A stretch of 64,000 bases of DNA from Thermoanaerobaculia bacterium (lineage in GTDB: Bacteria; Acidobacteriota; Thermoanaerobaculia; Gp7-AA8). Below, one piece after another: positions 38,536 through 60,713 of the stretch. The notes beneath the pieces are model-generated. The model ran no database searches, had not been told where the DNA came from, and saw only the letters and a program-made list of their open reading frames with translations. Made by a program: the position numbers and the translations under genes. Location of the stretch: positions 4,946-68,945 of the forward strand of contig JBGSYJ010000069.1 in NCBI GenBank assembly GCA_041750915.1. The letters run 5' to 3'. Position 1 is the first letter of the stretch. Each line of letters begins with the position of its first letter.

Positions 38536-39246
38536 CTACGCCAGCCGCGCGCGGAGTGACGAAACGCGGCTGCGGCCGACGGGCAGGACGGTGCCGTCGT
38601 CGAGCTCGACCGAGTAGCGCGAGCCTTCGTGGGCCACGAGCCGACGGATACGGGCGACGTCGGCGATAAAGGATTTGTGAATTCGCTCGAAGCGCTGCGG
38701 CAGCATCCCTTCCAGCCGGTCGAGCATCTTGTCGTGAGGAACGACCTCGCCGCCGGTCAGCACGAGCTCGGAGCGCGTGCCGGCGCCGCGGATCCAGGCG
38801 ATCCTTCCGATCTCGATGAACTCGAGCCAGCCGTCTCGCCGTACACCGATGTGCTCGACCGGCCTCTCGGTGCGTGATGCAGGTGCGAGAACGCGCTGGA
38901 ATGCCTGCGCCAGCCGCTCGCGGCTGAACGGTTTCGGGATGTAATCACGAATGCCGAGACTGAACGCTTCGAGGGCGCGGTCGCGGTCGGCGGAGATCAC
39001 GATCGTGTCGAACGATCGCGTCGAAAGATCGCGAAGAAGATCGAACCCGTCCTCACCTTCGAGATTGAGATCGAGGATCAGAACATCGGGTGCGCGGAGC
39101 CGGATCGCTTCGCGTGCATCGTCGATGCGCGACGCGACGGAGGTCTCGCCCGCGAGCGGCCCAAGGATCTCGGTCGCGAGGCGGGCTATTCTGCGCGCGA
39201 TCACCGCCTCGTCCTCCGCGATCAGAATGCGGAGTGGTTCGCTCAT
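38536..39246 (-). CDS. LytR/AlgR-family response regulator (REC + LytTR)
   Basis: ILIAEDEAVIARRI...DVLILDLNLEGEDGFDLL is the REC domain; the C-terminal half is a LytTR DNA-binding domain. The start at MSEPLRIL overlaps the kinase stop codon (ATGA). Confidence 0.85.
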   Translation of the reverse strand: MSEPLRILIAEDEAVIARRIARLATEILGPLAGETSVASRIDDAREAIRLRAPDVLILDLNLEGEDGFDLLRDLSTRSFDTIVISADRDRALEAFSLGIRDYIPKPFSRERLAQAFQRVLAPASRTERPVEHIGVRRDGWLEFIEIGRIAWIRGAGTRSELVLTGGEVVPHDKMLDRLEGMLPQRFERIHKSFIADVARIRRLVAHEGSRYSVELDDGTVLPVGRSRVSSLRARLA

Positions 39247-40997
39247 CCCGACGGCACCTCGATCACCGTGCGCCAGATCGAACCGACCGGCGCTGCCTCG
39301 AGGCTCCATCTTCCGGGAAAGCTCTCCTCGAGACGCGTGCGGATGTAGCGGTGCCCCAGTCCCTCGCCCCGCCTGCCGGCCTCGGTGCGGAGCGGCGTCT
39401 CCAGGGTGTATCGGTCGACGCCGCCCGAGCAGGCCCGGCGAAGCGTGAACGTCACGAGCTCTCCCTCGTAGCGGTTGTGCGTGATCGCATTCTCGAGGAG
39501 CGTGTGAAATGTTGCGGGCGGGACGCTCGCGTCGAGGTCGATGCCTTCCGTCGCCAGCTCGAACTTCGTTCCTTTCCGGCACGCCATCACTTCGAGATGC
39601 GAGCGGCACAGCTCGAGCTCGCGCCGGACGGAGATCAGCTTCTCGTTCGCGAATTCGCCGAGGATCCTCAGCTCGTCGGCGAGCGCCTGAAGGAACCGCA
39701 GGCCGGCGGGCGGATCTTCCTCGAGCCACTCCATCACGGCGGTGAGGGTGTTCATGAGAAAGTGCGGCTGAATCGACTTCCGCAGCAGCTCGATCTCCAG
39801 TCGCGCCGCGCGCAGAAGAGCGCTCTCGTGCTCACGTTTCTGCCGTTTCATTCCGATCGCCATCGAGACGAGGAGCGATGCGACCAGGACGGCGAAGGCG
39901 ATGAAGAAGGTGGAGTCACTGAATCCGTATCCTCCCCTCGCGAGAGAGACGGTGAGTGCGCCGAGCCCGATCGCGGGCGGAAAGACTTCGGAGCGCCGCG
40001 CGAGGACTGCTTCGACGATCGCCGCTGATGAGATCACGATCGAGGCAGTGAACATCAGCAGGCACCGCACGTCGAATCCGCCGCCGAGGAGGAGACACGC
40101 GACGAGAATCGCCGCGGATGCCGCGCCCCAGAGTTTCCGATGCGGGATCCGAAGATCCGTCACGAAGAAAAACGGCAGGAGCCATGCGACGGCGAACGTG
40201 AGCGTCGCGATGACGTTCAGCCGGATGAACTGCAGGTCCCATGTGATGCCGAAGACCCACCGCCACATCTCGGCGAGCACGAGGAGAGCGGACGCGAAGC
40301 AAAGGACTGCGAACAGTGCGTCGCGCTCGCGGCGCGTGGCAAGCCAGATCGAGAAAAAGTACGCGCCGACGACGAAGAAGACGCCGAGGCCGGCGGTGGG
40401 GACGAGCTGCGACCGGATCCTCGAGCGGATCATCGGCACCGTCTCTCCGATTGCGATTGCGTGAAAGAAGCCGTCGAGCTGAGGGACGCCGGGAGAAGCG
40501 CGGATCACAAGTGTGTGTGGCCCGGGCATAGCCATGCCAGGGTCGATCGCGTAGAAGTTGTCGAGAGGTCCGGCGGCCATCGCTCTGCCATCCGGGCCGA
40601 TCGTTCCATTCCTTCCGATGAGCGCTCCGTCCCAGTACACCTCGTGAGCGGCGAGCAGGGAGACATAGATCGCGAGCGATGCGTTCTCCGCCGGGACCAC
40701 AATCTCAACGGTCTTCCTGATCCAGATCGTCGGAACTGAGGGAAGGTCGTACAGGAGCCTCTCGGTCCATCCCGCGCTGTCGTCTTCGATCACCCAGGAA
40801 GGGTCGTCTCCAATCTTCACCTCGCCGAAGTCGTACGCGGTTGCCGTTCCCTCGAAGCGATCGGAGATCGCTCTGTACGGAAAATCCTGCGCGGCCCAGA
40901 TAGCGACAGCAAGGATGACGAGGTAGAGCGGAAGGCGCCAGCGCACCACCCGATTGTGCGCCCGGCTCGCTCTTCGCGCAACGGCTGAGACGTTCAC
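39243..40997 (-). CDS. LytS-type sensor histidine kinase with a 7TMR-DISM N-terminal sensor
   Basis: Periplasmic 7TMR-DISM-like region plus seven transmembrane helices, then His_kinase (IQPHFLMNTL) and the HATPase. Confidence 0.8.
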   Translation of the reverse strand: MNVSAVARRASRAHNRVVRWRLPLYLVILAVAIWAAQDFPYRAISDRFEGTATAYDFGEVKIGDDPSWVIEDDSAGWTERLLYDLPSVPTIWIRKTVEIVVPAENASLAIYVSLLAAHEVYWDGALIGRNGTIGPDGRAMAAGPLDNFYAIDPGMAMPGPHTLVIRASPGVPQLDGFFHAIAIGETVPMIRSRIRSQLVPTAGLGVFFVVGAYFFSIWLATRRERDALFAVLCFASALLVLAEMWRWVFGITWDLQFIRLNVIATLTFAVAWLLPFFFVTDLRIPHRKLWGAASAAILVACLLLGGGFDVRCLLMFTASIVISSAAIVEAVLARRSEVFPPAIGLGALTVSLARGGYGFSDSTFFIAFAVLVASLLVSMAIGMKRQKREHESALLRAARLEIELLRKSIQPHFLMNTLTAVMEWLEEDPPAGLRFLQALADELRILGEFANEKLISVRRELELCRSHLEVMACRKGTKFELATEGIDLDASVPPATFHTLLENAITHNRYEGELVTFTLRRACSGGVDRYTLETPLRTEAGRRGEGLGHRYIRTRLEESFPGRWSLEAAPVGSIWRTVIEVPSG

Positions 40998-41063
40998 TGC
41001 TTTTGCGAGATGTTCACTCGTTGGGAGTGGCGCGATCCTCGTCCGTTTTGGAGAATGACATTC

Positions 41064-42365
41064 ATGAAGAGACTCGCCATTCTCCTGTCCGCCTCACTTC
41101 TCGCCACCTCCGCCGTTCACCCGGCCGACCCGCCGCTCGCGCCGCGGATCGACGCATATCTGCGGCCCTACATCGACCAGAACGCATTCAGCGGAGTCGT
41201 TTTCGTCGCGAAGGGCGATGAGGTATTGTTCGAGAAGGCCTACGGGATGGCGAACTACGAGTTCGGCGTGCCGAACCGGCCCGACACGAGATTCGCGATC
41301 GCCTCGATCACCAAGCGTTTCACCGGCATCATCCTGCTGAAGCTCATCGCGGCTGAGAAGCTGGCACTTGACGACAAACTGTCGAAGTGGGCTCCAGATT
41401 TTCCATCAGCCGAGAAGATCACGGTGGAGCACCTCGCGAGACACCGCTCGGGTGTGCGTGACCCGGATGATCTCCGCCGGCTCATCCGGATGAATCACTC
41501 CGCCGCAGCCGTCGTCGATCACCTGAAGGAGAAGCCCCTCGGCAGCGAGCCGGGCGAGACGTATTCGTATACGACGGCCAACTACGCAATCCTCGGGCAC
41601 ATCATCGAGAGGGTGACGGGAAAGAGCTTCGACCAGGTCGTGCATCAGTACGTGTACGAGCCGGCAGGAATGAAGGACTCTGGGGAGCTCACGACGACGA
41701 CTGTCGTGCCGCGGCTCGCGACCGGCTATATGCCCGACCCATATGGCCGCGGCATTTCGGTTTGCGGGCCGGAGGATACTTCATGGAAGATCGCAGGCGG
41801 CTCGTCGTACTCGACCGCTCGCGACCTTCACCGGTTTGCGCGCGCCTTCTACCGCGCCAAGCTCGGCGTCGACCCCGCGGAGCTCGGGGGAACCTCGGAG
41901 GTCCACGGCCGACAGGCGTACTCATCGAACGGGAGCTTTCCGGGCGCCGGTGCGAACCTCCTCTACTTCCCCGAGGAAGAAGTCACACTGGTCGTTCTGA
42001 CGAACAACTACGCGACGATCGCACAGACAGCCACGCGCGACATCGCCGGAACGTACTTCGGCGAGAAAGTAGCCGATCCGACCGTGAAGCTCGCGAGCAA
42101 GCCGGCGCCGATGGACCCGAGAGTCTTCGGCGCGTACGAAGTCGAAGGGCGGACGTGGACGTTTACGATCGCGCTGGAGCAGGGCGCTCCCGTGCTCTCG
42201 TACAACGCGATGCGCAAGAGCGCTCTCCGGCGGATCGACGGCGACACCTGGTTCTCGCCGCTGGACTGGGCGAAATTCCGCCTGCGCTTCGACGAAGCGG
42301 GTCAATTCGAAGGGGCGATGATTCTGCCCGGAGACGATGAGGGTCTGAAGCTGATACGCAGGTAG
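41064..42365 (+). CDS. Beta-lactamase/penicillin-binding-protein family serine hydrolase (class C-like)
   Basis: Signal peptide and the ASITK (SxxK) motif. Confidence 0.8.
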   Translation: MKRLAILLSASLLATSAVHPADPPLAPRIDAYLRPYIDQNAFSGVVFVAKGDEVLFEKAYGMANYEFGVPNRPDTRFAIASITKRFTGIILLKLIAAEKLALDDKLSKWAPDFPSAEKITVEHLARHRSGVRDPDDLRRLIRMNHSAAAVVDHLKEKPLGSEPGETYSYTTANYAILGHIIERVTGKSFDQVVHQYVYEPAGMKDSGELTTTTVVPRLATGYMPDPYGRGISVCGPEDTSWKIAGGSSYSTARDLHRFARAFYRAKLGVDPAELGGTSEVHGRQAYSSNGSFPGAGANLLYFPEEEVTLVVLTNNYATIAQTATRDIAGTYFGEKVADPTVKLASKPAPMDPRVFGAYEVEGRTWTFTIALEQGAPVLSYNAMRKSALRRIDGDTWFSPLDWAKFRLRFDEAGQFEGAMILPGDDEGLKLIRR

Positions 42366-42559: not shown

Positions 42560-42949
42560 ATGGCCATACAGCCGAGGCTTGGAGAGCGGGAGCTCGATAT
42601 CATGCAGGTGCTCTGGGATACGGGAGGCGGAACCGTTTCGGATGTGCACGATCTGCTTCTGACCCGTCGAGGGAGTGTCGCTTATACGACAGTGCAGACG
42701 ATGCTCAACCGGCTCGAGGAGAAAGGGCACGTGCGGCGGGAGAAGGTCGGGCGTGCTTACTCGTACAAGCCGGTGATGAAGGAGCCGGCGGCGGCGAAAG
42801 TCGCCGTGAGGCGTGTGATCGATCGCTTTTTCGGGGGAGATCCGGCCGCGCTCGCGACTCACCTGGTTCAGGGTTCCGTTTCGGAGCGCGATCTCGTCCG
42901 CATCGAGGAGCTCATTGCATCGAGACGGGAAGCGGAGAAGAAGCGATGA
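42560..42949 (+). CDS. BlaI/MecI/CopY-family transcriptional repressor
   Basis: ELDIMQVLWDTGGGTVSDVHDLLL...YTTVQTMLNRLEEKGHV is a Penicillinase_R winged helix. Confidence 0.85.
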   Translation: MAIQPRLGERELDIMQVLWDTGGGTVSDVHDLLLTRRGSVAYTTVQTMLNRLEEKGHVRREKVGRAYSYKPVMKEPAAAKVAVRRVIDRFFGGDPAALATHLVQGSVSERDLVRIEELIASRREAEKKR

Positions 42950-44307
42950 GTGCTCTTCCTGCTCTCGCCGCCAATCTCTGGCTCGCAGGCGTTCCGGTGC
43001 TGCTCATCACAGCTGCCTCACTTGCGCTACTTCACAGAGCTCCGGCGCGGCTGCGTTATCTCGCGGCGCTCGCCGGATTCGTCGCCGCGATCGTCGTGCC
43101 GGTTCTGCTGACACGGGAGGCCGCTCCCATTGTCGTGAACGCCGCGGTGCCGGCGACCGCGACCGAATCGTTCGACTCTGCGCTCCTCGTCATTGGGCTC
43201 TGGTTTGCCGGCGCGCTTTTTCTGATTGGACGCGACGTGAGCGCGTATCGGCATCTGCGTCGCGAGGAGCAGGAGTGGATTCCGGCGGGTGAGCTAGGTG
43301 TGGACCCGTCGAAGTTCAGTGTCGTTCTGTCCGTCGGGGGAGCGCCGCGTACGCACGGCCTCCTGCGGCCCGTGATCGTGCTGCCGGAGGAATTGGTGCA
43401 TGCGGAAGCGGAGCTCGTGAGGCTAGTCCTCGCGCATGAGGAGTCGCATGCGCGCTGGCGCGATCCGATGATTCATTCCGCCATCCGCCTCGTGCGGTCG
43501 TTGCTGTGGTTCGCGCTGCCGCTGTGGCTCGCCGAGCGCCTCGTGATCCGGGAACGGGAGGCGGCGGCGGATGAAGCAGCGGTGGCAGCTGAAACGGGTG
43601 AGACGCGATCGCGGTACGCCGAGGCGCTGATCCGGTTCTGCCGCCTCGCTCCACGTCGATCCGCGCTCGCCGTGCAGCTCGGCGCGGCCGCAGATCTCGA
43701 GTACCGCGTGCGGCGGATTCTGCGCGCGTCGACGCGCGCAGGTTCTCTCGCAAGCGCTGTTGGTCTCCTCGGCGCAGGATTCTTTCTCTTCGCGTTCACG
43801 CCGCTGGCGGAGGTTCCTGCGGAAGTCGTCGTCGAGGTTGCAGACGTGCGGGCCGTTCAGAAGCTGGATAACGTGAAGGGTACGAGTGAAGTGCATGCGG
43901 TGATCCGTACAGAGTTCGAGAGTGCCATTGAGAAGAAGATTCGAGCCACGACGTCACGCGCGACTGGTTCGGCGAAGATCGACGACCCGGATGTTGTGGC
44001 GGTTGCGACGGTTGAGGCCATCGCATCCGATAACCCTGTTGCCGAAGGGGCTCCCTCACCCCTGACCCCTCTCCCGCCGGGAGAGGGGAAAGAGATTGCG
44101 CCTATCGTCGCTCCTGAGATCGACGATGAAGTGATCGTGATTCGTGACGTTCACAGGCATCGGCATGTGGATCGCCGCGACGGGAAACGGGGCGAAGAAG
44201 AAATCGCGAACGATACGGGGCGGAGCAGGCATCCGGTCGCACTCTTTCACCGCGGGGTGACCTCGCCCATCAAGCGATTCGTACGGCGGGTGAGGGGATC
44301 GTCGTGA
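42946..44307 (+). CDS. BlaR1-like M56 peptidase signal transducer without a recognisable C-terminal sensor domain
   Basis: Four-TM M56 domain with VLAHEESHARWRDP (HExxH). The C-terminal ~150 aa are low-complexity and include a translated copy of the 36-bp repeat (44056-44091, PSPLTPLPPGEG). Confidence 0.8.
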   Translation: MSALPALAANLWLAGVPVLLITAASLALLHRAPARLRYLAALAGFVAAIVVPVLLTREAAPIVVNAAVPATATESFDSALLVIGLWFAGALFLIGRDVSAYRHLRREEQEWIPAGELGVDPSKFSVVLSVGGAPRTHGLLRPVIVLPEELVHAEAELVRLVLAHEESHARWRDPMIHSAIRLVRSLLWFALPLWLAERLVIREREAAADEAAVAAETGETRSRYAEALIRFCRLAPRRSALAVQLGAAADLEYRVRRILRASTRAGSLASAVGLLGAGFFLFAFTPLAEVPAEVVVEVADVRAVQKLDNVKGTSEVHAVIRTEFESAIEKKIRATTSRATGSAKIDDPDVVAVATVEAIASDNPVAEGAPSPLTPLPPGEGKEIAPIVAPEIDDEVIVIRDVHRHRHVDRRDGKRGEEEIANDTGRSRHPVALFHRGVTSPIKRFVRRVRGSS

Positions 44308-52968: not shown

Positions 52969-53124
52969 CCGCTGTTCATCGCTCGCTTCAATGGCCCTGC
53001 CATCCACCTACTCGGGATGACCCCTCGTTCATCGCCAATGTGACCTGCTCGGGTGGCGGCTCCTGTCTACTGTCTTCTGTGTGCTGTCTACTCTCCCGCC
53101 GTCTGTGTAATCATTCCAGAAAGC

Positions 53125-54513
53125 ATGCCGGTTACCCCCTTCACGATCGAAGAGCTCGCCCGACTCAGCGATGAGGAAGCGCTCCGTAGCTCCTCCAATG
53201 CGGCCATTCTCAAAGCGCTCCGGTGGGTGCTCCGTTTCTTCTTCGTCGTTTCTCTCGTGGAGTGGCTGACCGCTTCGCAGGGCACCGGTCCAGCCGGAGT
53301 CGCAATCGTCAACCTGCTGGTCGTCGTCGGCCTTCTTTTGGGATTCAGACGACTGACGAGTCCGAAGAAAGGCCTGGGCAGAAGGCTGTCCTGGTTCGAG
53401 CCGCTGGCGCGTCTGCTGCGGGTTCAGTCGCGGGGAGTCGCCTCGACCTATCTCGTGCTTCAGTTGTGGATGGTGATGCTGTTTACTTCGGGAGGAAGCG
53501 GCATCATCCCCTGGCTGGTTCTGTTCCCGCAGATCGTTCTGTTGTTCCGCTTCGGACCGGCGGAACGCTTCGCGCTCCATGCGATCTTCATTCTTTCGGC
53601 GGTCGTCGGATGGTTGGCTCCGCTGATTCTCGATCTGTCGAACGCAAGGTTCGAACACGTCGTTTCCGCAACGGTTGCGAACGCCGTTGCGCTCGGCGTC
53701 GGCCTGTACATCGCCCGCCGCATCAGCCGCAGATTTCTCGCCGAGTGGAGAGAAGCGAGGGGCGGCGCGCGGGAGCAAATCCGGATGCGGCAGGAACTCG
53801 AGTCGGCCCGTGAGATCCAGCTGAGCATGCTCCCGCGGGAGACGCCGGAGCTCGAATGGGTCGATCTCGCGAGCGTCTCGATTCCCGCGACGGAAGTTGG
53901 CGGCGATTACTACGACTTCTTTTTCCCGTCTGCGAACCGGCTGGTTCTGGTCTCCGCGGACGTTGCCGGTCACGGTCTGGGAAGTGGTCTCGTGCTGTCG
54001 GGAGTTCGAAGCGGACTCGCGCTTCTCGCTGACGAGCTGGATCATCCGGAGCTCGTCATGGGCAGGCTCCACCGCATGCTCCGCAAGACGACGGGAACGC
54101 GGATGCTCGTCACGATGGCGCTCCTGTCGCTCGACCCGGAAACGATGGGGGCTCGATACGCGACGGCTGGGCATCCACCCCTGCTGATCCGGAGGGCAGG
54201 AACGGGGAAGGTGGACGAAGTCCTGCGAAGCTCCCTTCCACTCGGGGCTGCGATGTCGGCGGATTATGTCGTCGACGAGATTCCTTTCGGATCGGGCGAC
54301 GTATTCATCCTGCACACGGACGGAGTTTATGAGATGCGCAACAACGCGGGAGATGCGTACGGGCTCGACCGGCTCGCGGCGGTTCTCGGGGAGCAGGACG
54401 ACTCGACGACCGCACGGGAAGTGCGGGACGCGATCCTCCGTGACGTGTTCGCGTTCCGTGACCATGCGCCGCAGGAGGATGACCTGACGCTGGTCGTGGC
54501 GAAGGTGCGATAA
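53125..54513 (+). CDS. Membrane-anchored PP2C-type Ser/Thr phosphatase (SpoIIE/RsbU family)
   Basis: About six transmembrane helices, then EIQLSMLP...GGDYYDF...VADVAGHGLGSG...HTDGVYE SpoIIE motifs. Confidence 0.8.
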   Translation: MPVTPFTIEELARLSDEEALRSSSNAAILKALRWVLRFFFVVSLVEWLTASQGTGPAGVAIVNLLVVVGLLLGFRRLTSPKKGLGRRLSWFEPLARLLRVQSRGVASTYLVLQLWMVMLFTSGGSGIIPWLVLFPQIVLLFRFGPAERFALHAIFILSAVVGWLAPLILDLSNARFEHVVSATVANAVALGVGLYIARRISRRFLAEWREARGGAREQIRMRQELESAREIQLSMLPRETPELEWVDLASVSIPATEVGGDYYDFFFPSANRLVLVSADVAGHGLGSGLVLSGVRSGLALLADELDHPELVMGRLHRMLRKTTGTRMLVTMALLSLDPETMGARYATAGHPPLLIRRAGTGKVDEVLRSSLPLGAAMSADYVVDEIPFGSGDVFILHTDGVYEMRNNAGDAYGLDRLAAVLGEQDDSTTAREVRDAILRDVFAFRDHAPQEDDLTLVVAKVR

Positions 54514-54543
54514 GCAGTTCTGAGTACTGCCAGGGCGGCGGTG

Positions 54544-54999
54544 CCCCTCTCCCGGCGGGAGAGGGGTCAGGGGTGAGGGAGCTTCTTCAGCGCCTCAACC
54601 AAACGCTTGATCCGATCGAGCACGATTTCCGGATTTACGAGCAGCTCTTCATTCTCGATTCGAGTCAGGGTGTAACCGCGATCCTGAAGGTACTGCGTGC
54701 GATGCGCGTCGGACGATTGAACGGACAGATCAAAGTGACCGTCGCCGTCGAGCTCGATGATGAGCCTAACTTCTTCGCAGCAGAAATCAACGATGTAATG
54801 TCCGATCTCGAATTGTCTCTGAAACTTCAGATTCATAAAGCGGCGTCCGCGGAGTGCGGACCACATCGCGCGTTCTGCCGGGGTCTGTCGCCTTCGAAGT
54901 TCGCGGGCTCTTTGGACGAGCTTGTGAGATTCGTGATGCATGAGCGTGATCGTACCTCGGGTTCCCTCACCCCTGACCCCTCTCCCGCCGGGAGAGGGG
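54544..54999. mobile_element. DUF559 cassette 2: full-length DUF559 gene bounded by perfect 36-bp terminal inverted repeats
   Basis: The left end CCCCTCTCCCGGCGGGAGAGGGGTCAGGGGTGAGGG (54544-54579) is the exact reverse complement of the right end CCCTCACCCCTGACCCCTCTCCCGCCGGGAGAGGGG (54964-54999). The gene's stop codon and last three codons lie inside the left repeat. Confidence 0.6.
54567..54941 (-). CDS. DUF559 endonuclease-domain protein (Vsr-like/PD-(D/E)xK)
   Basis: ARELRRRQTPAERAMWSALRGRRFMNLKFQRQFEIGHYIVDFCCEEVRLIIELDGDGH is a full-length DUF559. Confidence 0.8.
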   Translation of the reverse strand: MHHESHKLVQRARELRRRQTPAERAMWSALRGRRFMNLKFQRQFEIGHYIVDFCCEEVRLIIELDGDGHFDLSVQSSDAHRTQYLQDRGYTLTRIENEELLVNPEIVLDRIKRLVEALKKLPHP

Positions 55000-55073
55000 A
55001 ACCGCCACCCTGCTGTGCACCGTGATAGGATTCAAACCTTCAATCTCCAAATGCTGAGAGGCCATCACGCGAC

Positions 55074-58000
55074 ATGATCGGCACGATTCTCAATAACCGC
55101 TACGAGATCATCGGTGAGCTCGGTCGCGGTGGGATGGGTGTGGTTTACCGCGCCAGGGACCCTCTGCTCAACCGCGAGGTTGCGATCAAGCTCGTTCCCC
55201 CGATGCTGCTCAATCCGCAGTCAGAGGAGCGATTCAACCGCGAGGCGCAGCTCGTCGCACAGATGGACCATCCGTCCATCGTTCCGATCTTCGACATCGG
55301 ACAGCACGATGGCTCGATGTTCTTCCTGATGCCTGTGGTGAAGGGCGACAACCTGCGGGCGTTTCTCCGCGAAAAGCCTCGGACTCTCGGATCCATCATC
55401 GACATTGCCATCCAGGCGGCAGAGGGTCTCGAATACAGCCACGCGAGAGGAGTGATTCACCGCGACATCAAGCCGGAGAACATCATGGTCTCCGAGGAAG
55501 AGGGCGCGCTGCGGGTTCGCATTATGGATTTCGGCCTCGCGAAAGCGGCGTCGGACCAGAGGCTGACGCGAACGGGCACGCTCGTTGGAACCGTCTCGTA
55601 TTTCAGCCCCGAGCAGGTCAAGGCCGAGGAGGTCGACAACCGCTCCGATATCTACTCTCTCGGGACGGTGATCTATGAAGCGATCGCAGGAGAGCCTCCG
55701 TTCACGGGCGAGATGCAGTCGGTGCTTTACCGCGCCGTCCACGAGAACCCGCGTTCGCTGATCGATCGCGGCGCGGAGATCTCGCAATCGCTCGAAGACG
55801 TGATCATGCGTACGCTCGCTAAAGAGCCGTCCAGACGGTATGCAACGGCGGGCGATCTCGTCGAGGCGCTCAGACGGTACAGGTTGACCCTCCGCGACGA
55901 TGACATGGTCAAGGCCGTAGGAATGTCCTCGGTCATGACGGCACAGATGGTCCGTCCGTCGTCGGCTCCGTTCATCGGAAGAGAGAAAGAGATTGCCGAG
56001 CTGCAGCGCCGCCTGAACGCAGCCGTCGACGGAGAATGCCAGTTCGCAGTGATCGCAGGAGAGCCGGGCATCGGCAAGACACGGCTCGTCGAAGAGATCG
56101 AGAGTCTCGCCCGCGCGCGGAAGATCACAGTTCTTCACGGGCGTTTCATGGAGCAGGATCGCACCTTCGCGTATCAGGGCTTCGGCGAGGCCATTCAGGA
56201 GTTCTTCCGTTCGCCGGACACCGGTGGATCGGGAGCGCGGCCGGACGTATCGGATCTCGCACCCGATCTGATCGCACTGTTTCCGGTTCTCAGTGAGATC
56301 AGCGAACTGCGCAAAACATCGAGCGGCGATCAGCGGCAGGAACCGGCCGAATCGCGAAAAGCCGAAGACCGCACGTGGGTGTTCGAGCTGCTCGCGCGGA
56401 CGATGGTGCGCATCGGAGGCGGGAAAGCGCTCGTTCTCGTGTTTGAGAATCTCCACTCGGCCGAGCTCTCGCTCGATGCGCTTCAGTACATCGTGCGCCG
56501 CCTCGCTCCGACGCCGACGCTCATCATCGGAACGTTTCGTCAGACAGAGATCGACAAGCGCCACCCGCTGGTCAAGATGCTCGACACATTCGCTGACGAT
56601 CCGAGATTCTCGTCGACTTACCTCGGTCCTCTGACTCCGTCGGAACACCGCAGCTTCATTCAGACGATGGTCGGTGGCGCTTCTCTCGGAGCAGGGCTGG
56701 CCGAGCGACTCTATGAAGCGACCGAAGCGAATCCCTTCTTCACGCGCGAGCTCGTCCGCTCTCTGATCGACTCCGGCGGAATTGCGAGGGCGGAGACGGG
56801 AGAGTGGACGCTGTCGGGGGAAATGGCGATTTCGTCCGACGCGCTGCCTGCAACGATTCAGCAGACGGTCGAGAAGCGGATCGAGAGGCTGCCGGAAGAG
56901 ATGCGGGACGTGCTCTCCACGGCTTCTGTCATGGGCCGCAGCTTCGACTTTCGCGACCTCGAGTCACTCGCAGACTCGAAGGGAGGCCTCGACGACATCG
57001 TGGATCGCCTCGTCTACGAGGGATTGATCGAAGAGGAGCGCGAGTCGCGGGGAGACAGGCTCGCGTTCACGAGCGGCATCGTCCGGGATGTTCTCTACAG
57101 CGCGCTGTCACGCCGGAAGAGAAAGTCTCTGCATCGCAGGTATGCCGAGCTGCTCGAAAAGCGGAACAGCGGAAGACTGGATCGAGTCTATCCGCAGCTC
57201 GTTCACCACTACTCCGAGGGGGATGTTCCGGACAAGACGGTCGAGTACGGAATGATTCTCGCGCGCAAGTCTCTTGACGCATTCAGTTCCGAGGAGGCGG
57301 TGCAGACGCTTCGTACGGTCGTCGACTTCCTTGATGATGACGAGTGGTCGCCTCCGCCGGGCACCGTAGGCGAGGCGCGCATGCTGCTCGCTTCGGCGCT
57401 TCGGCAGCAGGGACAAATCGACGCAGCGTTGCGGGAAGCTGAGGCAGCTGTCCAGAGCTTCGAAAAGGACAAAGATGCGGATCGCGCGTCGGCTGCGATG
57501 CTGCTCGCTGCGGAAGCCGCATGGCAGGGCCGCCGTGTCGAAGAAACAAGGAACTGGCTCGATCGCGGAGTTGCGGCAGCGAGAGGTGCGACAGCAGGAA
57601 ATGTTCTCGCCGACCTGCTGTCCCTTGCAGCCACGGTCGCAAACCTGCGGGGCGAGTACAGCAGGGCGAAGGAGCTTCTCGATGAGCTCGAACGAATCCG
57701 TCCGGCAATCTCCCTGGAGCAGCAGATCGACATCCCGGTCGGTGGGCGGTTGATGGTGAGTCTCGGAAATCCCGCGCCCGCGAAAGAGCCGGCAGCGATC
57801 GAGCTTCTGGAAGAGTCCGAAATTCTCGGCCTCGCTTTCGAAAGGCTCGTGACGACTGATGATCGGGGCCACCTGGTCGCCTCTCTCGGCGAAAGCTGGG
57901 ATGTGATCGACGATGGCCGGGCGATGAAACTGCGGTTGCGCGAGGGAGTGCGCTTTCACGACGGTTCCCCGCTTACCGCCGAGGCGGTGAGGGATTCAAT

Positions 58001-60713
58001 CGAAGGGGCTGTGAAGTCTCAGTTGCGCGAGACCGCAGCCTGGTCGGTGATTGAAGGATTCGAGGAGTTCCGGGAGGGAGCTTCGAGCCACATCTCCGGA
58101 ATTCTCATTCAGGGAGAGGGTGACCTCGAGATCCGGCTGAGAGAACCCCTGCCGATTTATCCCGCGCTCCTGACGGATACGAAGACCGGAATCTCACACG
58201 TAACAGTCGACGAAAAGGGAGTCCGTTCGGTGGCCGGTACGGGTGCGTTCCGCATCGTCCAGCACGATCAGGACCGCATCGTGATAGAGAAGAACGCGGA
58301 CTACTGGATGCCCGGGAGGCCGCGCCTCGACGCGATCGAGTTTCGCGTGGAGAGAAACGCCTCGTCGCGCGCCGCGCAGATGCGCTCCGGCGAGATCGAT
58401 GTCGGGCGCGAGCTCCTGACCAACGACCTCGACGAGCTTCTTCGCGACCCCCGTTTCCGCAACGGTCTCCAGGAGGTTCCGAACAAGATCACCTATTTCG
58501 CGGTGTTCAATCACTCGACGCCTGCGGGAGGAAATGAAAGGCTTCGCCGCGCGCTGTGCGGAGTTCTTCCCGTGCACGATCTCGTCTGGGGCTCACTGGG
58601 ACGCCTCGCCCAGCCGACGACGACACTGATTCCACCGGGGATCCTGGGCCACGATCCGGGCCGCCGCCGGCATCCGATGTCGCGGGACCAGGCGGCCGAA
58701 CTGCTCACCGCCAGTGGACTCGAACTGCCCCTCACGCTGCGGGCGGCAGTCCAGCCCCTCTACCAGGACCGGTATCGCGCTTTGCTCGACGCCATTGTCG
58801 AGATCTGGTCGAGCCTTGGAGTGACGATCGAGATCGTGACGCCTGATCTCGAGTCCTTCATGGCCTCATACCGCGATGACGAAGACATCGACATCCGGAT
58901 CATGCGTTGGGCTGCCGACTATGACGATCCGGACGATTTCTCGTACGGTTTGTTCCATTCCGGAACCGGGCTCGTATCGCGTTACTTCTCGACGCCGGCG
59001 ATCGACCAATTGACCGAAGAGGGGAGGACGGAACGACGGCCTGCAGCCCGAGAGGCGATCTATCGACGGTTCGAGCAGGCGATCTCCGAGTCCGGATCGG
59101 TTCTCCCGTTTTTCCACGAAATCGATTACCGACTGGCCAACCCCTACGTGCGGGGGCTGCAGATCGTCAGCACGTCTCCATTCGTGAATTACGCCGAGCT
59201 CGGAAAATCGTCGCACGCGCCCGTCGTGGCAACGAGTCGCGCGGGCGGAATGATCGTTGTACCGATCGCCGGGGCGATGCACGAGATCGAGCCAACTCGC
59301 GTGACGACTGTCGAAATGAGCGAGACGGTGCCCTGCTTTTACGAGACTTTGACGAAGGTGGGCGAGGGCGCCCGCGTCATCCCGTGGCTTGCCAGCTCGG
59401 TAACACCCGAGGACGGAGGAATGCGTTACCGGATACGACTCCGTGAGGACGTTCGTTTCCATGACGGCCGGCGTATGAGTGCGCGCGATGTCCGTTACAC
59501 GTTCGAGCGTCTGTTCACTCTTTCAGGGAGCGTTGCCGGATGGTTCTTCACGGCGATTAAGGGCGCGAAGGAACTGATGGCAGGACGGACCCGAGAGCTC
59601 GAGGGTCTGCAAATCGTTTCCTCACACGAGCTCGTCATGGAGCTGGAGCACCCGCTCTCGTTTTTTCCCACGCTGCTCTCGCACCTGAACTCGTCGATCG
59701 TTCCAGAAGGGACTGGGGAAATCGGTACGTCGTGGAAGACTGGCGTAGCGGGCACAGGACCATTTCGGCTGGTGGCTCTCGATCCGTCCGGGAGACTGGA
59801 GCTGGAGAAGAATCCGTTTTACTGGCGTGATGGATACCCTAAGAGCGATGCTCTCGTTTTCCAGTACGGGTTGGGAAGCGACGAGATCAGACATCGATTT
59901 CAGGCAGGGGAGCTATCCATCGCCAGCGACCTCAGGCCGGCGGACGTCGAACTGTTCCGGCACGACCCGGAGTTCGCTCCGGGGTACCGGGAGACCCCTC
60001 GTCTTTCAATTTACTTCGCCGCATTCAACCGGAACCGAGGCCCACTCGCTGACCCTGAACTGCGCCGCAGTCTGGTGAGTATGATCGATGTCCCCGGAAT
60101 CGTGGGGCGCCAGCTGGGTCGCCTGGCGATTCCTGCGCATGGAATCATTCCGCCCGGGCTGCTCGGATTCAATACAGCGCAGCCCGGTCGCGCTGCTATG
60201 TCTCGTTCACGCGGAGGAGAGAATCGCGACATCGAGTTGAAAACCGTCGTGCATCCGATCTTCTTCGAACAGTACGCAGGAGTCGGGAAAGAACTGCTCG
60301 CAGCGTTCGCGGAGAAGGGGATTCGAATACAGATTACGGCGAAAACGATGAGCGAATATACAGACGCCCGTATCGTCGCTGAAGCGGATCTCAAGATAGG
60401 ACGCTGGTTCGCGGACTATCCCGACGCTGATACGTTTACACACGGTCTGCTTCATCGAAAAGCCGGTTACATCGGCGATTCCTGCGGATCTGTGGAACTC
60501 GATCGCCTCACAGAGCGGGGCAGAGAGGAATCCGATCCCGGACGACGTCATGCAATCTATCAGGAAATCGAGCAGATGGTTGTGCGCGATGCGCTCATGC
60601 TGCCGCTGTTTCACGAGCAGATCTACCGGCTGGCGCGCCCCGAAGTCGAAGGGCTCGCTTTGAATCTCTCCACGCCCGAGGTGCAGTACGATGAGTTGCG
60701 AGTACGACGTTGA
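55074..60713 (+). CDS. Giant signalling protein: Ser/Thr protein kinase + STAND/AAA_16 ATPase + TPR + two SBP_bac_5 (peptide-binding-protein-like) domains
   Basis: Kinase: GRGGMGVVYRA, VAIK, HRDIKPEN, DFGLA. NTPase: GEPGIGKTRL (Walker A). SBP5 number 1: WDVIDDGRAMKLRLREGVRFHDGSPLTAEAV...GTGAFRIV...NADYW. SBP5 number 2: MRYRIRLREDVRFHDGRRMSARDV...GTGPFRLV...NPFYW. No transmembrane segment seen. Confidence 0.85.
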   Translation: MIGTILNNRYEIIGELGRGGMGVVYRARDPLLNREVAIKLVPPMLLNPQSEERFNREAQLVAQMDHPSIVPIFDIGQHDGSMFFLMPVVKGDNLRAFLREKPRTLGSIIDIAIQAAEGLEYSHARGVIHRDIKPENIMVSEEEGALRVRIMDFGLAKAASDQRLTRTGTLVGTVSYFSPEQVKAEEVDNRSDIYSLGTVIYEAIAGEPPFTGEMQSVLYRAVHENPRSLIDRGAEISQSLEDVIMRTLAKEPSRRYATAGDLVEALRRYRLTLRDDDMVKAVGMSSVMTAQMVRPSSAPFIGREKEIAELQRRLNAAVDGECQFAVIAGEPGIGKTRLVEEIESLARARKITVLHGRFMEQDRTFAYQGFGEAIQEFFRSPDTGGSGARPDVSDLAPDLIALFPVLSEISELRKTSSGDQRQEPAESRKAEDRTWVFELLARTMVRIGGGKALVLVFENLHSAELSLDALQYIVRRLAPTPTLIIGTFRQTEIDKRHPLVKMLDTFADDPRFSSTYLGPLTPSEHRSFIQTMVGGASLGAGLAERLYEATEANPFFTRELVRSLIDSGGIARAETGEWTLSGEMAISSDALPATIQQTVEKRIERLPEEMRDVLSTASVMGRSFDFRDLESLADSKGGLDDIVDRLVYEGLIEEERESRGDRLAFTSGIVRDVLYSALSRRKRKSLHRRYAELLEKRNSGRLDRVYPQLVHHYSEGDVPDKTVEYGMILARKSLDAFSSEEAVQTLRTVVDFLDDDEWSPPPGTVGEARMLLASALRQQGQIDAALREAEAAVQSFEKDKDADRASAAMLLAAEAAWQGRRVEETRNWLDRGVAAARGATAGNVLADLLSLAATVANLRGEYSRAKELLDELERIRPAISLEQQIDIPVGGRLMVSLGNPAPAKEPAAIELLEESEILGLAFERLVTTDDRGHLVASLGESWDVIDDGRAMKLRLREGVRFHDGSPLTAEAVRDSIEGAVKSQLRETAAWSVIEGFEEFREGASSHISGILIQGEGDLEIRLREPLPIYPALLTDTKTGISHVTVDEKGVRSVAGTGAFRIVQHDQDRIVIEKNADYWMPGRPRLDAIEFRVERNASSRAAQMRSGEIDVGRELLTNDLDELLRDPRFRNGLQEVPNKITYFAVFNHSTPAGGNERLRRALCGVLPVHDLVWGSLGRLAQPTTTLIPPGILGHDPGRRRHPMSRDQAAELLTASGLELPLTLRAAVQPLYQDRYRALLDAIVEIWSSLGVTIEIVTPDLESFMASYRDDEDIDIRIMRWAADYDDPDDFSYGLFHSGTGLVSRYFSTPAIDQLTEEGRTERRPAAREAIYRRFEQAISESGSVLPFFHEIDYRLANPYVRGLQIVSTSPFVNYAELGKSSHAPVVATSRAGGMIVVPIAGAMHEIEPTRVTTVEMSETVPCFYETLTKVGEGARVIPWLASSVTPEDGGMRYRIRLREDVRFHDGRRMSARDVRYTFERLFTLSGSVAGWFFTAIKGAKELMAGRTRELEGLQIVSSHELVMELEHPLSFFPTLLSHLNSSIVPEGTGEIGTSWKTGVAGTGPFRLVALDPSGRLELEKNPFYWRDGYPKSDALVFQYGLGSDEIRHRFQAGELSIASDLRPADVELFRHDPEFAPGYRETPRLSIYFAAFNRNRGPLADPELRRSLVSMIDVPGIVGRQLGRLAIPAHGIIPPGLLGFNTAQPGRAAMSRSRGGENRDIELKTVVHPIFFEQYAGVGKELLAAFAEKGIRIQITAKTMSEYTDARIVAEADLKIGRWFADYPDADTFTHGLLHRKAGYIGDSCGSVELDRLTERGREESDPGRRHAIYQEIEQMVVRDALMLPLFHEQIYRLARPEVEGLALNLSTPEVQYDELRVRR

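Follow-up and report, generated by a model that had tools for sequence, protein, structure and literature searches.

What use might a cytoplasmic protein kinase have for two solute-binding domains of a family normally associated with the outside of the cytoplasm? The question is raised by one gene in a 64,000-nucleotide stretch of DNA (hereafter the window) from a Thermoanaerobaculia bacterium of the phylum Acidobacteriota (GenBank assembly GCA_041750915.1, contig JBGSYJ010000069.1). Its open reading frame (ORF), 55074..60713 on the plus strand, begins with ATG and encodes 1879 amino acids and a stop codon in a single frame, according to the ORF list and its translation; the closest in-frame stop 5' of the ATG is at 55026, and no alternative start lies between the two. 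An earlier description of the window, made from its letters and ORFs (hereafter the sequence-only reading), had proposed a Ser/Thr kinase fused to a STAND (signal transduction ATPase with numerous domains) ATPase, tetratricopeptide repeats (TPRs) and two tandem family-5 solute-binding protein (SBP) domains of the Pfam family SBP_bac_5, referred to here as SBP5. Pfam domains and, for the TPRs, structure prediction uphold this architecture. In our judgment it is slightly on the probable side that SBP5 flytraps in this protein act as an intracellular sensor and gate both the assembly of the STAND switch and the activation of the kinase.

Domain architecture and cellular location

Pfam gave an AAA_16 match at residues 299–485 (E = 6e-19; 69.6 bits against a cut-off of 32.6) and, with each lobe scanned alone, SBP_bac_5 matches at residues 935–1297 (E = 9.6e-59) and ~1435–1796 (E = 2.3e-52), both of which span profile positions 2–364 of 368. 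The domain scan therefore did place the C-terminal region (residues ~905–1879) in SBP_bac_5, as had been supposed, and both lobes are complete. Matches to TPR_MalT and TPR_16 fell under the Pfam cut-offs, so the TPR assignment rests on structure prediction. No helix-turn-helix (HTH) domain was among the Pfam matches of the protein, and NCBIfam held no curated family for the protein as a whole, each match being far under its own cut-off. Coordinates of all domains are collected in Table 1.

The kinase domain is intact in its catalytic motifs. Among the 71 full-length family members compared here and below, the G-loop GRGGMG, the VAIK lysine (Lys39), H129-R-D131, D152-F-G and S178-P-E are invariant or nearly so, and by these motifs the window protein classes as a member of the Hanks-type Ser/Thr protein kinase superfamily. 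The activation loop reads R-L-T165-R-T167-G-T169-L-V-G-T173, in which Thr165 and Thr173 are invariant. RD kinases of this kind are usually activated by activation-loop phosphorylation. From the RD-kinase motif and the conserved Thr165, Thr167, Thr169 and Thr173 we infer phosphotransfer as well as autophosphorylation of the activation loop.

The window protein is also a member of the MalT-clade STAND NTPases: on predicted structure, its middle is a STAND module of that clade and includes a short TPR-like repeat. [quoted passage not shown] Walker A (G329-E-P-G-I-G-K335-T) is invariant, and Walker B (hhhh-E458) has E in 65 of the 71 members and D in the other 6, followed by N, D or E. Searches of the NOD-TPR region against the PDB by sequence, whether with the single sequence or with a 19-sequence profile, returned marginal TPR or RadA matches only, so that a structural search was needed for this region. 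In the STAND scheme an effector is joined to a NOD, an arm and an inducer-binding sensor, with PknK named as a kinase example in the MalT subfamily; inducer bound to the sensor turns the closed ADP form into an open ATP form, which multimerizes (PMC4381067). The domain order found here, with the kinase as effector followed by the NOD, a helical repeat and terminal ligand-binding modules, is that of the STAND scheme.

The two C-terminal lobes share 32% identity over 496 aa and are closest by sequence to OppA, MppA, DppA and 8upi, a Mesorhizobium peptide-binding protein. In the PDB, lobe 1 matched OppA (E = 2e-32, covering residues 18–498 of the 517-residue protein) and MppA (3e-30), and lobe 2 matched 8upi (1.7e-32) and OppA (8e-26). 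No equivalog-level match to OppA, DppA, NikA, GsiB or SapA was found in NCBIfam (score/cut-off in bits: OppA 175/947, NikA-type 163/600, DppA 122/1005). An AlphaFold model of residues 880–1879 had a mean predicted local distance difference test score (pLDDT) of 86.7 for both lobes together. Within the linker, residues 1382–1389 (model residues 503–510) have a pLDDT below 50 and are predicted to be disordered, and the linker is poorly conserved; with a predicted TM-score (pTM) of 0.52, the two-lobe model does not predict how the lobes are placed relative to each other. Foldseek matched cluster-C SBPs at E values of 1e-36 to 1e-37, with 16–23% identity to the PDB matches listed. The top target-normalized TM-scores (0.82–0.89) included those to MppA (4toz) and DppE (8azb), both unliganded, and to 5u4o and YliB (1uqw), whose ligand state is absent from the Foldseek listing. 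Structure prediction of both SBP5 lobes retains the full three-domain flytrap fold at high model confidence.

Equivalences to OppA residues were mapped by hand from HMMER alignments. The equivalents of OppA Asp419, the residue that forms a salt bridge with the peptide alpha-amino group in the OppA and DppA structures, are Asp1282 in lobe 1 and Asp1781 in lobe 2, each invariant in all 71 members. They end the invariant motifs R1278-W1279-x-A-D1282 and R1777-W1778-x-A-D1781, and the motif W-x-A-D-Y-x-x-P is common to OppA-type proteins and both lobes. OppA Trp416 is conserved in both, OppA Gly415 is replaced by invariant Arg1278 (lobe 1) and Arg1777 (lobe 2), and OppA His371 by invariant Tyr1234 in lobe 1. 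Because each lobe has ~90 invariant positions among relatives that are only ~54% identical overall, we consider both lobes to be under selection. The clefts themselves look selected, yet on these residues they appear to differ from OppA in detail.

Two observations place the protein in the cytoplasm, and they bear out the earlier claim that it lacks both a signal peptide and a transmembrane helix. The highest Kyte-Doolittle mean over 19 residues is 1.56, and the N-terminus, where the kinase domain already begins at residue 10, leaves no space for a signal peptide. By the same scale, no segment of transmembrane strength was found in the window protein or in 70 of the 71 family members; in the one relative whose mean reaches 1.8, the peak falls in a core strand of lobe 1, inside the SBP fold. 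We looked specifically for a transmembrane segment dividing the kinase from the SBP domains and found none, nor did a hydrophobic segment occur in the stretch from the TPR repeat to lobe 1, or elsewhere. ATP-binding cassette (ABC) genes were absent within ~7 kb on either side of the gene and from beside six of the seven homologs inspected. The remaining homolog (L003) lies beside a PBP_like_2/SBP_bac_1-type ABC system and a PhoU gene, likely a phosphate uptake system unrelated to family 5.

The protein was also considered as a family-5 SBP of an ABC transporter. This identity was rejected, since there is no export signal, no transporter partner genes are present and the equivalog scores lie under their cut-offs; the fold alone fits. 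The public names of the homologs P0005–P0112 are “ABC transporter substrate-binding protein,” “ABC-type transport system substrate-binding protein” and “BREX system ATP-binding domain-containing protein.” Each of these names misleads when given to a STAND kinase of the cytoplasm, and mis-annotation as an ABC transporter protein inflates transporter counts in metagenome-based metabolic reconstructions.

Table 1. Coordinates of the kinase gene and its domains within the 64,000-nucleotide window.
Feature	Residues	Coordinates	Strand	Basis
Whole gene: kinase, STAND NOD, TPR-like repeat, SBP5 lobe 1, SBP5 lobe 2		55074..60713	+	ORF list, translation
Hanks-type Ser/Thr kinase domain	10–257	55101..55844	+	Pfam Pkinase (E = 3e-51), motifs
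STAND NOD (helical, winged-helix and arm parts)	~299–679	55968..57110	+	Walker A GEPGIGKT (Lys335), Walker B LVLVFEN (Glu458)
TPR-like helical repeat, in the slot of the sensor/arm of MalT-type STAND proteins	~680–875	57111..57698	+	
SBP_bac_5 lobe 1, complete cluster-C fold	~890–1378	57741..59207	+	Pfam, PDB matches, AlphaFold, Foldseek
Inter-lobe linker, predicted disordered	~1379–1394	59208..59255	+	pLDDT <50, low conservation
SBP_bac_5 lobe 2, complete fold	~1395–1879	59256..60710	+	Pfam, PDB matches, identity to lobe 1

A conserved family, its variants and other STAND proteins with SBP5

The fusion had been called unusual, and relative to the searched literature it is: full-text searches returned no paper on a kinase-STAND-SBP5 fusion, and in the SBP_bac_5 passages inspected in a review on SBP signaling (PMC8050422) the domain appears only as separate periplasmic proteins, while the word Pkinase is absent from that review. 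In genomes, however, the fusion is a large conserved family. At least 314 loci encoding it came up in a scan of species representatives, in which each GTDB species is represented by a single genome. Taxonomic labels of the best 80 of these, which were inspected, are Thermoanaerobaculia, Blastocatellia (Pyrinomonadaceae, Chloracidobacterium) and Vicinamibacteria, with a few bins assigned to another phylum or to none, and identity is typically ~54% across the full length. The full architecture is encoded as one ORF in 72 of 84 related loci, with 10 of the other 12 broken by contig ends; conservation as a single ORF is strong across Acidobacteriota.

In a search of 5.8 billion proteins, nearly all of the 120 clusters listed had 97–100% query coverage at 50–82% identity, and their proteins were ~1830–1925 aa long, the exceptions being seven variants of ~2150 aa with a double kinase and two partial records. 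AAA_16 and SBP_bac_5 are present in all 120, all but one partial record contain Pkinase, and those with names come from Thermoanaerobaculia, Blastocatellia or Acidobacteriota metagenome-assembled genomes.

Some genomes encode two copies. One pair (L010/L025, 80% identity) lies within a few kb on the same 33.6-kb contig (DASXTI010000152.1), another (L002/L018, 71%) on a single 4.46-Mb contig (contig_25364), and further paralog pairs are 62% (L007/L039) and 70% (L021/L043) identical. Mean pairwise identity across the family is 0.73 for the kinase and 0.72 for the NOD, as against 0.58–0.61 for the TPR and the two lobes, and the same trend holds between paralogs. The lower conservation of the TPR and lobes would fit some divergence in the ligand sensed.

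An exhaustive search of representatives returned 718 at E ≤1e-30. Of the 150 listed, ~45 are ~1800–1960 aa long with a two-lobe C-terminal match that is 33–46% identical to the query SBP region. A one-lobe subfamily of ~1350–1390 aa, comprising P0201, P0206 (locus L086 2860–7026, where the gene is complete inside its contig) and ~15 further representatives, has kinase, NOD and TPR followed by a single lobe-2-like SBP5 (41–47% identity). The resemblance of this single lobe to lobe 2 suggests that lobe 1 is the later addition, having arisen through a duplication or an insertion. The ~2150-aa variant (L006 6386–12829, which is P0056, together with P0034, P0047 and P0058) has an extra N-terminal Hanks kinase, 40% identical to the resident kinase, and also matches PF03109 (ABC1).

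Candidates for stand-alone tandem SBP5 ancestors were examined and rejected: the ~1000-aa proteins P0182, P0193 and P0162 start inside the TPR region and are fragments, and P0224 is a truncated copy of a 1870-aa protein. Long upstream in-frame extensions at L072 and L058 were also rejected as extra domains, being off-gene open frames in GC-rich DNA.

SBP5 domains are found on STAND proteins of a second group. At least 14 clusters among P0277–P0297 (1609–1998 aa; named members are Promineifilaceae, Chloroflexota) combine Pkinase, BTAD, AAA_16 and SBP5, and P0260 (2843 aa, in a cluster that includes a Promineifilaceae record) has SARP/BTAD, AAA_16 and four SBP5 lobes without a kinase. Like the window protein, P0260 and the Chloroflexota Pkinase-BTAD-AAA_16-SBP_bac_5 proteins (P0277–P0289) carry C-terminal SBP5 on a STAND ATPase, with or without a kinase; they differ in having one lobe or four and in carrying a SARP/BTAD domain as well. 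Because the Chloroflexota proteins are only 23–30% identical to the three Acidobacteriota-type proteins (Pkinase + AAA_16 + SBP_bac_5) compared, SBP5 was probably recruited there independently. Sister proteins of the Chloroflexota group have TPR, WD40, hydrolase or adenylate-cyclase modules in place of SBP5, and the presence of TPR or WD40 at this position puts SBP5 in the sensor slot. Such swaps are expected if SBP5 behaves as an interchangeable sensor module.

A proposed sensor mechanism and competing explanations

For its switch and output, the nearest counterparts of the window protein appear to be PknK and MalT; for its sensor, SgrR comes nearest, and the PknG-GlnX-GlnH system is a looser parallel. 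PknK of M. tuberculosis, compared by architecture from the literature alone, shares the N-terminal Hanks kinase, MalT-clade STAND ATPase and helical repeats, and is also soluble and cytoplasmic; it presumably ends at the TPR-like sensor, without a solute-binding domain, whereas the window protein bears ~1000 further residues that form the two SBP5 flytraps. MalT of E. coli has a LuxR-type DNA-binding effector at its C-terminus and no SBP, in contrast to the N-terminal kinase effector found here, and similarity to it is undetectable by sequence in the profile search against the PDB. Both lobes have in common with OppA, MppA and DppA the complete three-domain fold, the Asp419 equivalent and the W-x-A-D-Y-x-x-P motif, but they have no signal peptide, lipobox or ABC permease partner and are fused in tandem to a signaling protein. 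The SgrR/DsvR transcription factors are the only described case we found of a family-5 SBP domain acting as the sensor of a cytoplasmic regulator, and this precedent supports a sensor role; there, a single SBP5 is joined to a DNA-binding domain, without STAND ATPase or kinase. An SgrR-type regulator was itself rejected as an identity for the window protein, which has no HTH domain and scores 26 bits against the NCBIfam SgrR cut-off of 476. In the PknG-GlnX-GlnH system of Actinobacteria, a cytoplasmic TPR-bearing Ser/Thr kinase reports amino-acid availability sensed by an SBP (PMC8546545 and its reference 11). That SBP, GlnH, belongs to family 3, is separate and extracytoplasmic, and acts via the membrane protein GlnX, whereas the SBP domains of the window protein are of family 5, fused in cis and intracellular.

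The most economical reading of these observations assigns inducer binding in the STAND switch to the SBP5 flytraps, in whole or in part. At rest, the MalT-like nucleotide-binding domain would be closed, held so by a C-terminal sensor region made up of the TPR-like repeat and the two flexibly tethered flytraps. A small cytoplasmic ligand with a free amino group, such as an oligopeptide, a cell-wall peptide or another amino-acid derivative, would enter the cleft of one or both lobes, and its binding would shut the flytrap and lift the inhibition. The NOD could then swap nucleotide and oligomerize, so bringing together the N-terminal kinase domains, which would trans-autophosphorylate the conserved activation-loop threonines; the active kinase would go on to phosphorylate target proteins. 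The proposed direction of control is thus from flytrap to kinase.

An invariant Asp together with an invariant Arg and Tyr suggests a ligand that has both a free amine and an acidic group. Candidates would be a peptide, a murein peptide, a gamma-glutamyl compound or an amino-acid derivative; within the sensor model, the chances that the ligand is a peptide are roughly even. The sequence-only reading had likewise spoken of an intracellular peptide or ligand sensor feeding a kinase. As a sensor, this remains the best-fitting reading, given the invariant Asp419 equivalents and the MalT-like switch, but its peptide part is reduced to a candidate, as the residues that hold the carboxyl end in OppA are not conserved.

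Several points weigh against the sensor model. OppA Arg413, which binds the peptide carboxylate, is Ile in both lobes, and OppA Tyr109 and Trp397 (mapped in lobe 1) are not kept, such that a classical OppA-like mode of peptide binding is not demonstrated by the residues compared. With pTM at ~0.5, the relative placement of the domains is not predicted. Oligomerization and ligand control are inferred here by analogy with other STAND proteins, and by the same analogy the TPR-like domain could be the true sensor, as the TPR-like domain of MalT binds inducer, leaving the SBP5 lobes with another role. Finally, neighborhoods differ in every homolog at 51–59% identity and give no metabolic clue to the ligand.

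One such role would be docking, with the lobes binding protein N-terminal tails or unfolded polypeptides, either to recruit substrates or as a scaffold, and the TPR-like repeat acting as the real inducer sensor. The reference list of PMC4381067 indicates that the MalT inducer does bind in the TPR-like domain. Retention of the Asp that anchors a free amino terminus, with loss of the OppA carboxylate residues, would suit an open-ended polypeptide, and two lobes on a flexible linker could act as avidity clamps. We nevertheless regard docking as unlikely, given that the TPR segment is short (~195 residues) and shares with lobe 1 the lowest conservation in the protein (identity 0.58), that Chloroflexota sisters swap SBP5 for WD40 or TPR arrays as in a sensor slot, and that no candidate partner gene is conserved beside the kinase gene. 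A somewhat lower probability still attaches to the lobes being ligand-blind relics, retained as bulky structural or oligomerization domains of a kinase whose regulation comes from elsewhere, nucleotide state alone being one example. Neither a ligand nor an association with a transporter can be shown for them, and both are far under every NCBIfam equivalog cut-off (OppA 175 against 947 bits, DppA 122 against 1005). Relics would not, however, be expected to hold ~90 invariant positions per lobe, the anchor Asp and the Arg-Trp pair before it included, or to keep the full three-domain flytrap fold at high model confidence; nor would they account for the repeated recruitment of SBP5 to STAND proteins in two phyla.

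A STAND NTPase that bears a C-terminal sensor is a known defense architecture, and the window protein might be an antiviral (Avs-like) member of that class, its lobes recognizing a phage peptide or protein and its kinase acting as an abortive-infection effector. The kinase domain scores strongly on PADLOC kinase models (PD-T4-6, MADS6, PglW), and a weak BrxC_BrxD Pfam match falls at residues 301–367. The PADLOC matches, however, are confined to the generic kinase domain (residues 1–320), with none in the NOD or SBP region; ~54% full-length identity across several Acidobacteriota classes is unlike the patchy, fast-evolving pattern of defense genes; and the neighbors are housekeeping, metabolic or regulatory genes rather than defense islands. 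We consider a defense role very improbable. A misread topology, with the C-terminal half exported, or an artifact of assembly or gene fusion that joined a kinase gene to two periplasmic SBP genes, is hardly credible. It would agree with the extracytoplasmic location of SBP_bac_5 proteins elsewhere and with the public name “ABC transporter substrate-binding protein,” but 72 of the 84 loci, which are independent and come from many assemblies, have the ORF uninterrupted (10 of the other 12 being cut by contig ends), a hydrophobic segment is absent throughout, no ABC permease or ATPase genes are adjacent, and the seeming tandem SBPs of ~1000 aa start inside the TPR region and are fragments. The sequence data already contradict it.

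If the sensor model holds, it can be widened, as a tentative proposal that we place a little short of probable. SBP5 flytraps would be a previously unrecognized class of intracellular sensor for bacterial STAND ATPases. The kinase family of Thermoanaerobaculia, Blastocatellia and Vicinamibacteria, of which two paralogs are often present, would be a conserved receptor in the cytoplasm for peptides or metabolites that resemble them, and through it Ser/Thr phosphorylation would be coupled to the pools of peptide or cell-wall peptide inside the cell. Chloroflexota would employ this sensor logic again, with SARP transcription-factor outputs. The domains and the logic are familiar, and what is new is the type of sensor on a STAND kinase and the intracellular use of that sensor. 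STAND sensors have been described as repeat arrays (leucine-rich repeats, TPR, WD40, ankyrin) and family-5 SBPs as extracytoplasmic parts of transporters, and this family unites both inside the cell. Present in hundreds of species of a major, poorly studied soil phylum, it offers a tractable route to what the Ser/Thr kinases of Acidobacteriota sense, and to how a flytrap could gate a STAND switch.

Gene neighborhood and minor observations

The window is chromosomal and contains genes for aconitase, DnaE and a large NAD-glutamate dehydrogenase. Upstream of the kinase gene lie a Trans_reg_C + hydrolase gene (minus strand), an HTH + methyltransferase gene, a SpoIIE/PP2C gene (53053..54513, plus strand) and a DUF559 gene (54567..54941, minus strand). 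Downstream, an Abhydrolase_11 gene (PF20408; 60789..61424, plus strand) starts 75 bp past the kinase stop on the same strand and is followed by a gene for an Rce1-like protease. Abhydrolase_11 occupies the same place in L001, the 82% relative, where it is 77% identical, and is not found there in more distant relatives. We considered a conserved neighborhood as a clue to ligand or substrate and rejected it after inspecting seven contexts, in which only the 80–82% relatives share neighbors and the other downstream genes are mutually unrelated.

The PP2C product belongs to the SpoIIE family (PF07228) and has ~5–6 transmembrane-like segments in residues 1–225, by which it is classed as a multi-pass membrane SpoIIE-type phosphatase. 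A PP2C gene is also directly upstream of the kinase gene in L001 (82% identity) and L009 (80%), from both of which DUF559 is absent. Six homologs at 51–59% identity and the single-lobe L086 have different neighbors and no phosphatase, and across 85 loci tblastn found PP2C adjacent in L001 and L009 only, with two weak, non-adjacent matches elsewhere. The earlier suggestion that this is the cognate phosphatase of the kinase does not stand: the protein is of the membrane SpoIIE type and its gene is adjacent in the two closest relatives (80–82%) only, so that the link is one of local synteny and no more. The GTG start listed for the PP2C gene, whose product has a Met at residue 25, may lie too far upstream; the L001 homolog is 473 aa long.

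A DUF559 cassette does precede the kinase gene, as had been noted, but it is an insertion on the opposite strand. The gene is flanked by a 50-nt inverted repeat, 96% complementary, with arms at 54531–54580 and 54963–55012. Homology to L009 breaks at the inverted-repeat stretch, the cassette replacing ~137 bp of the intergenic spacer of L009, and no DUF559 homolog was found in the 85 related loci. For these reasons we regard it as unrelated to the kinase; its appearance is that of a small mobile cassette that entered the spacer between the PP2C gene and the kinase gene. The 37-nt core of the repeat, CCCCTCTCCCGGCGGGAGAGGGGTCAGGGGTGAGGGA, contains a GC-rich hairpin and has a third exact copy at 44052–44088 (minus strand), where the chance expectation is zero. 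The repeat may be a REP- (repetitive extragenic palindromic) or MITE-like (miniature inverted-repeat transposable element) element of this genome.

This third copy falls within the 3' part of a plus-strand ORF (42946..44307), past its Peptidase_M56/BlaR1 match. The same BlaR1-type Peptidase_M56 gene follows a beta-lactamase-family gene (41010..42365, plus strand), and the two are a possible sensor/enzyme pair; a LytS-type His_kinase gene (39243..40997) is divergent from the beta-lactamase-family gene.

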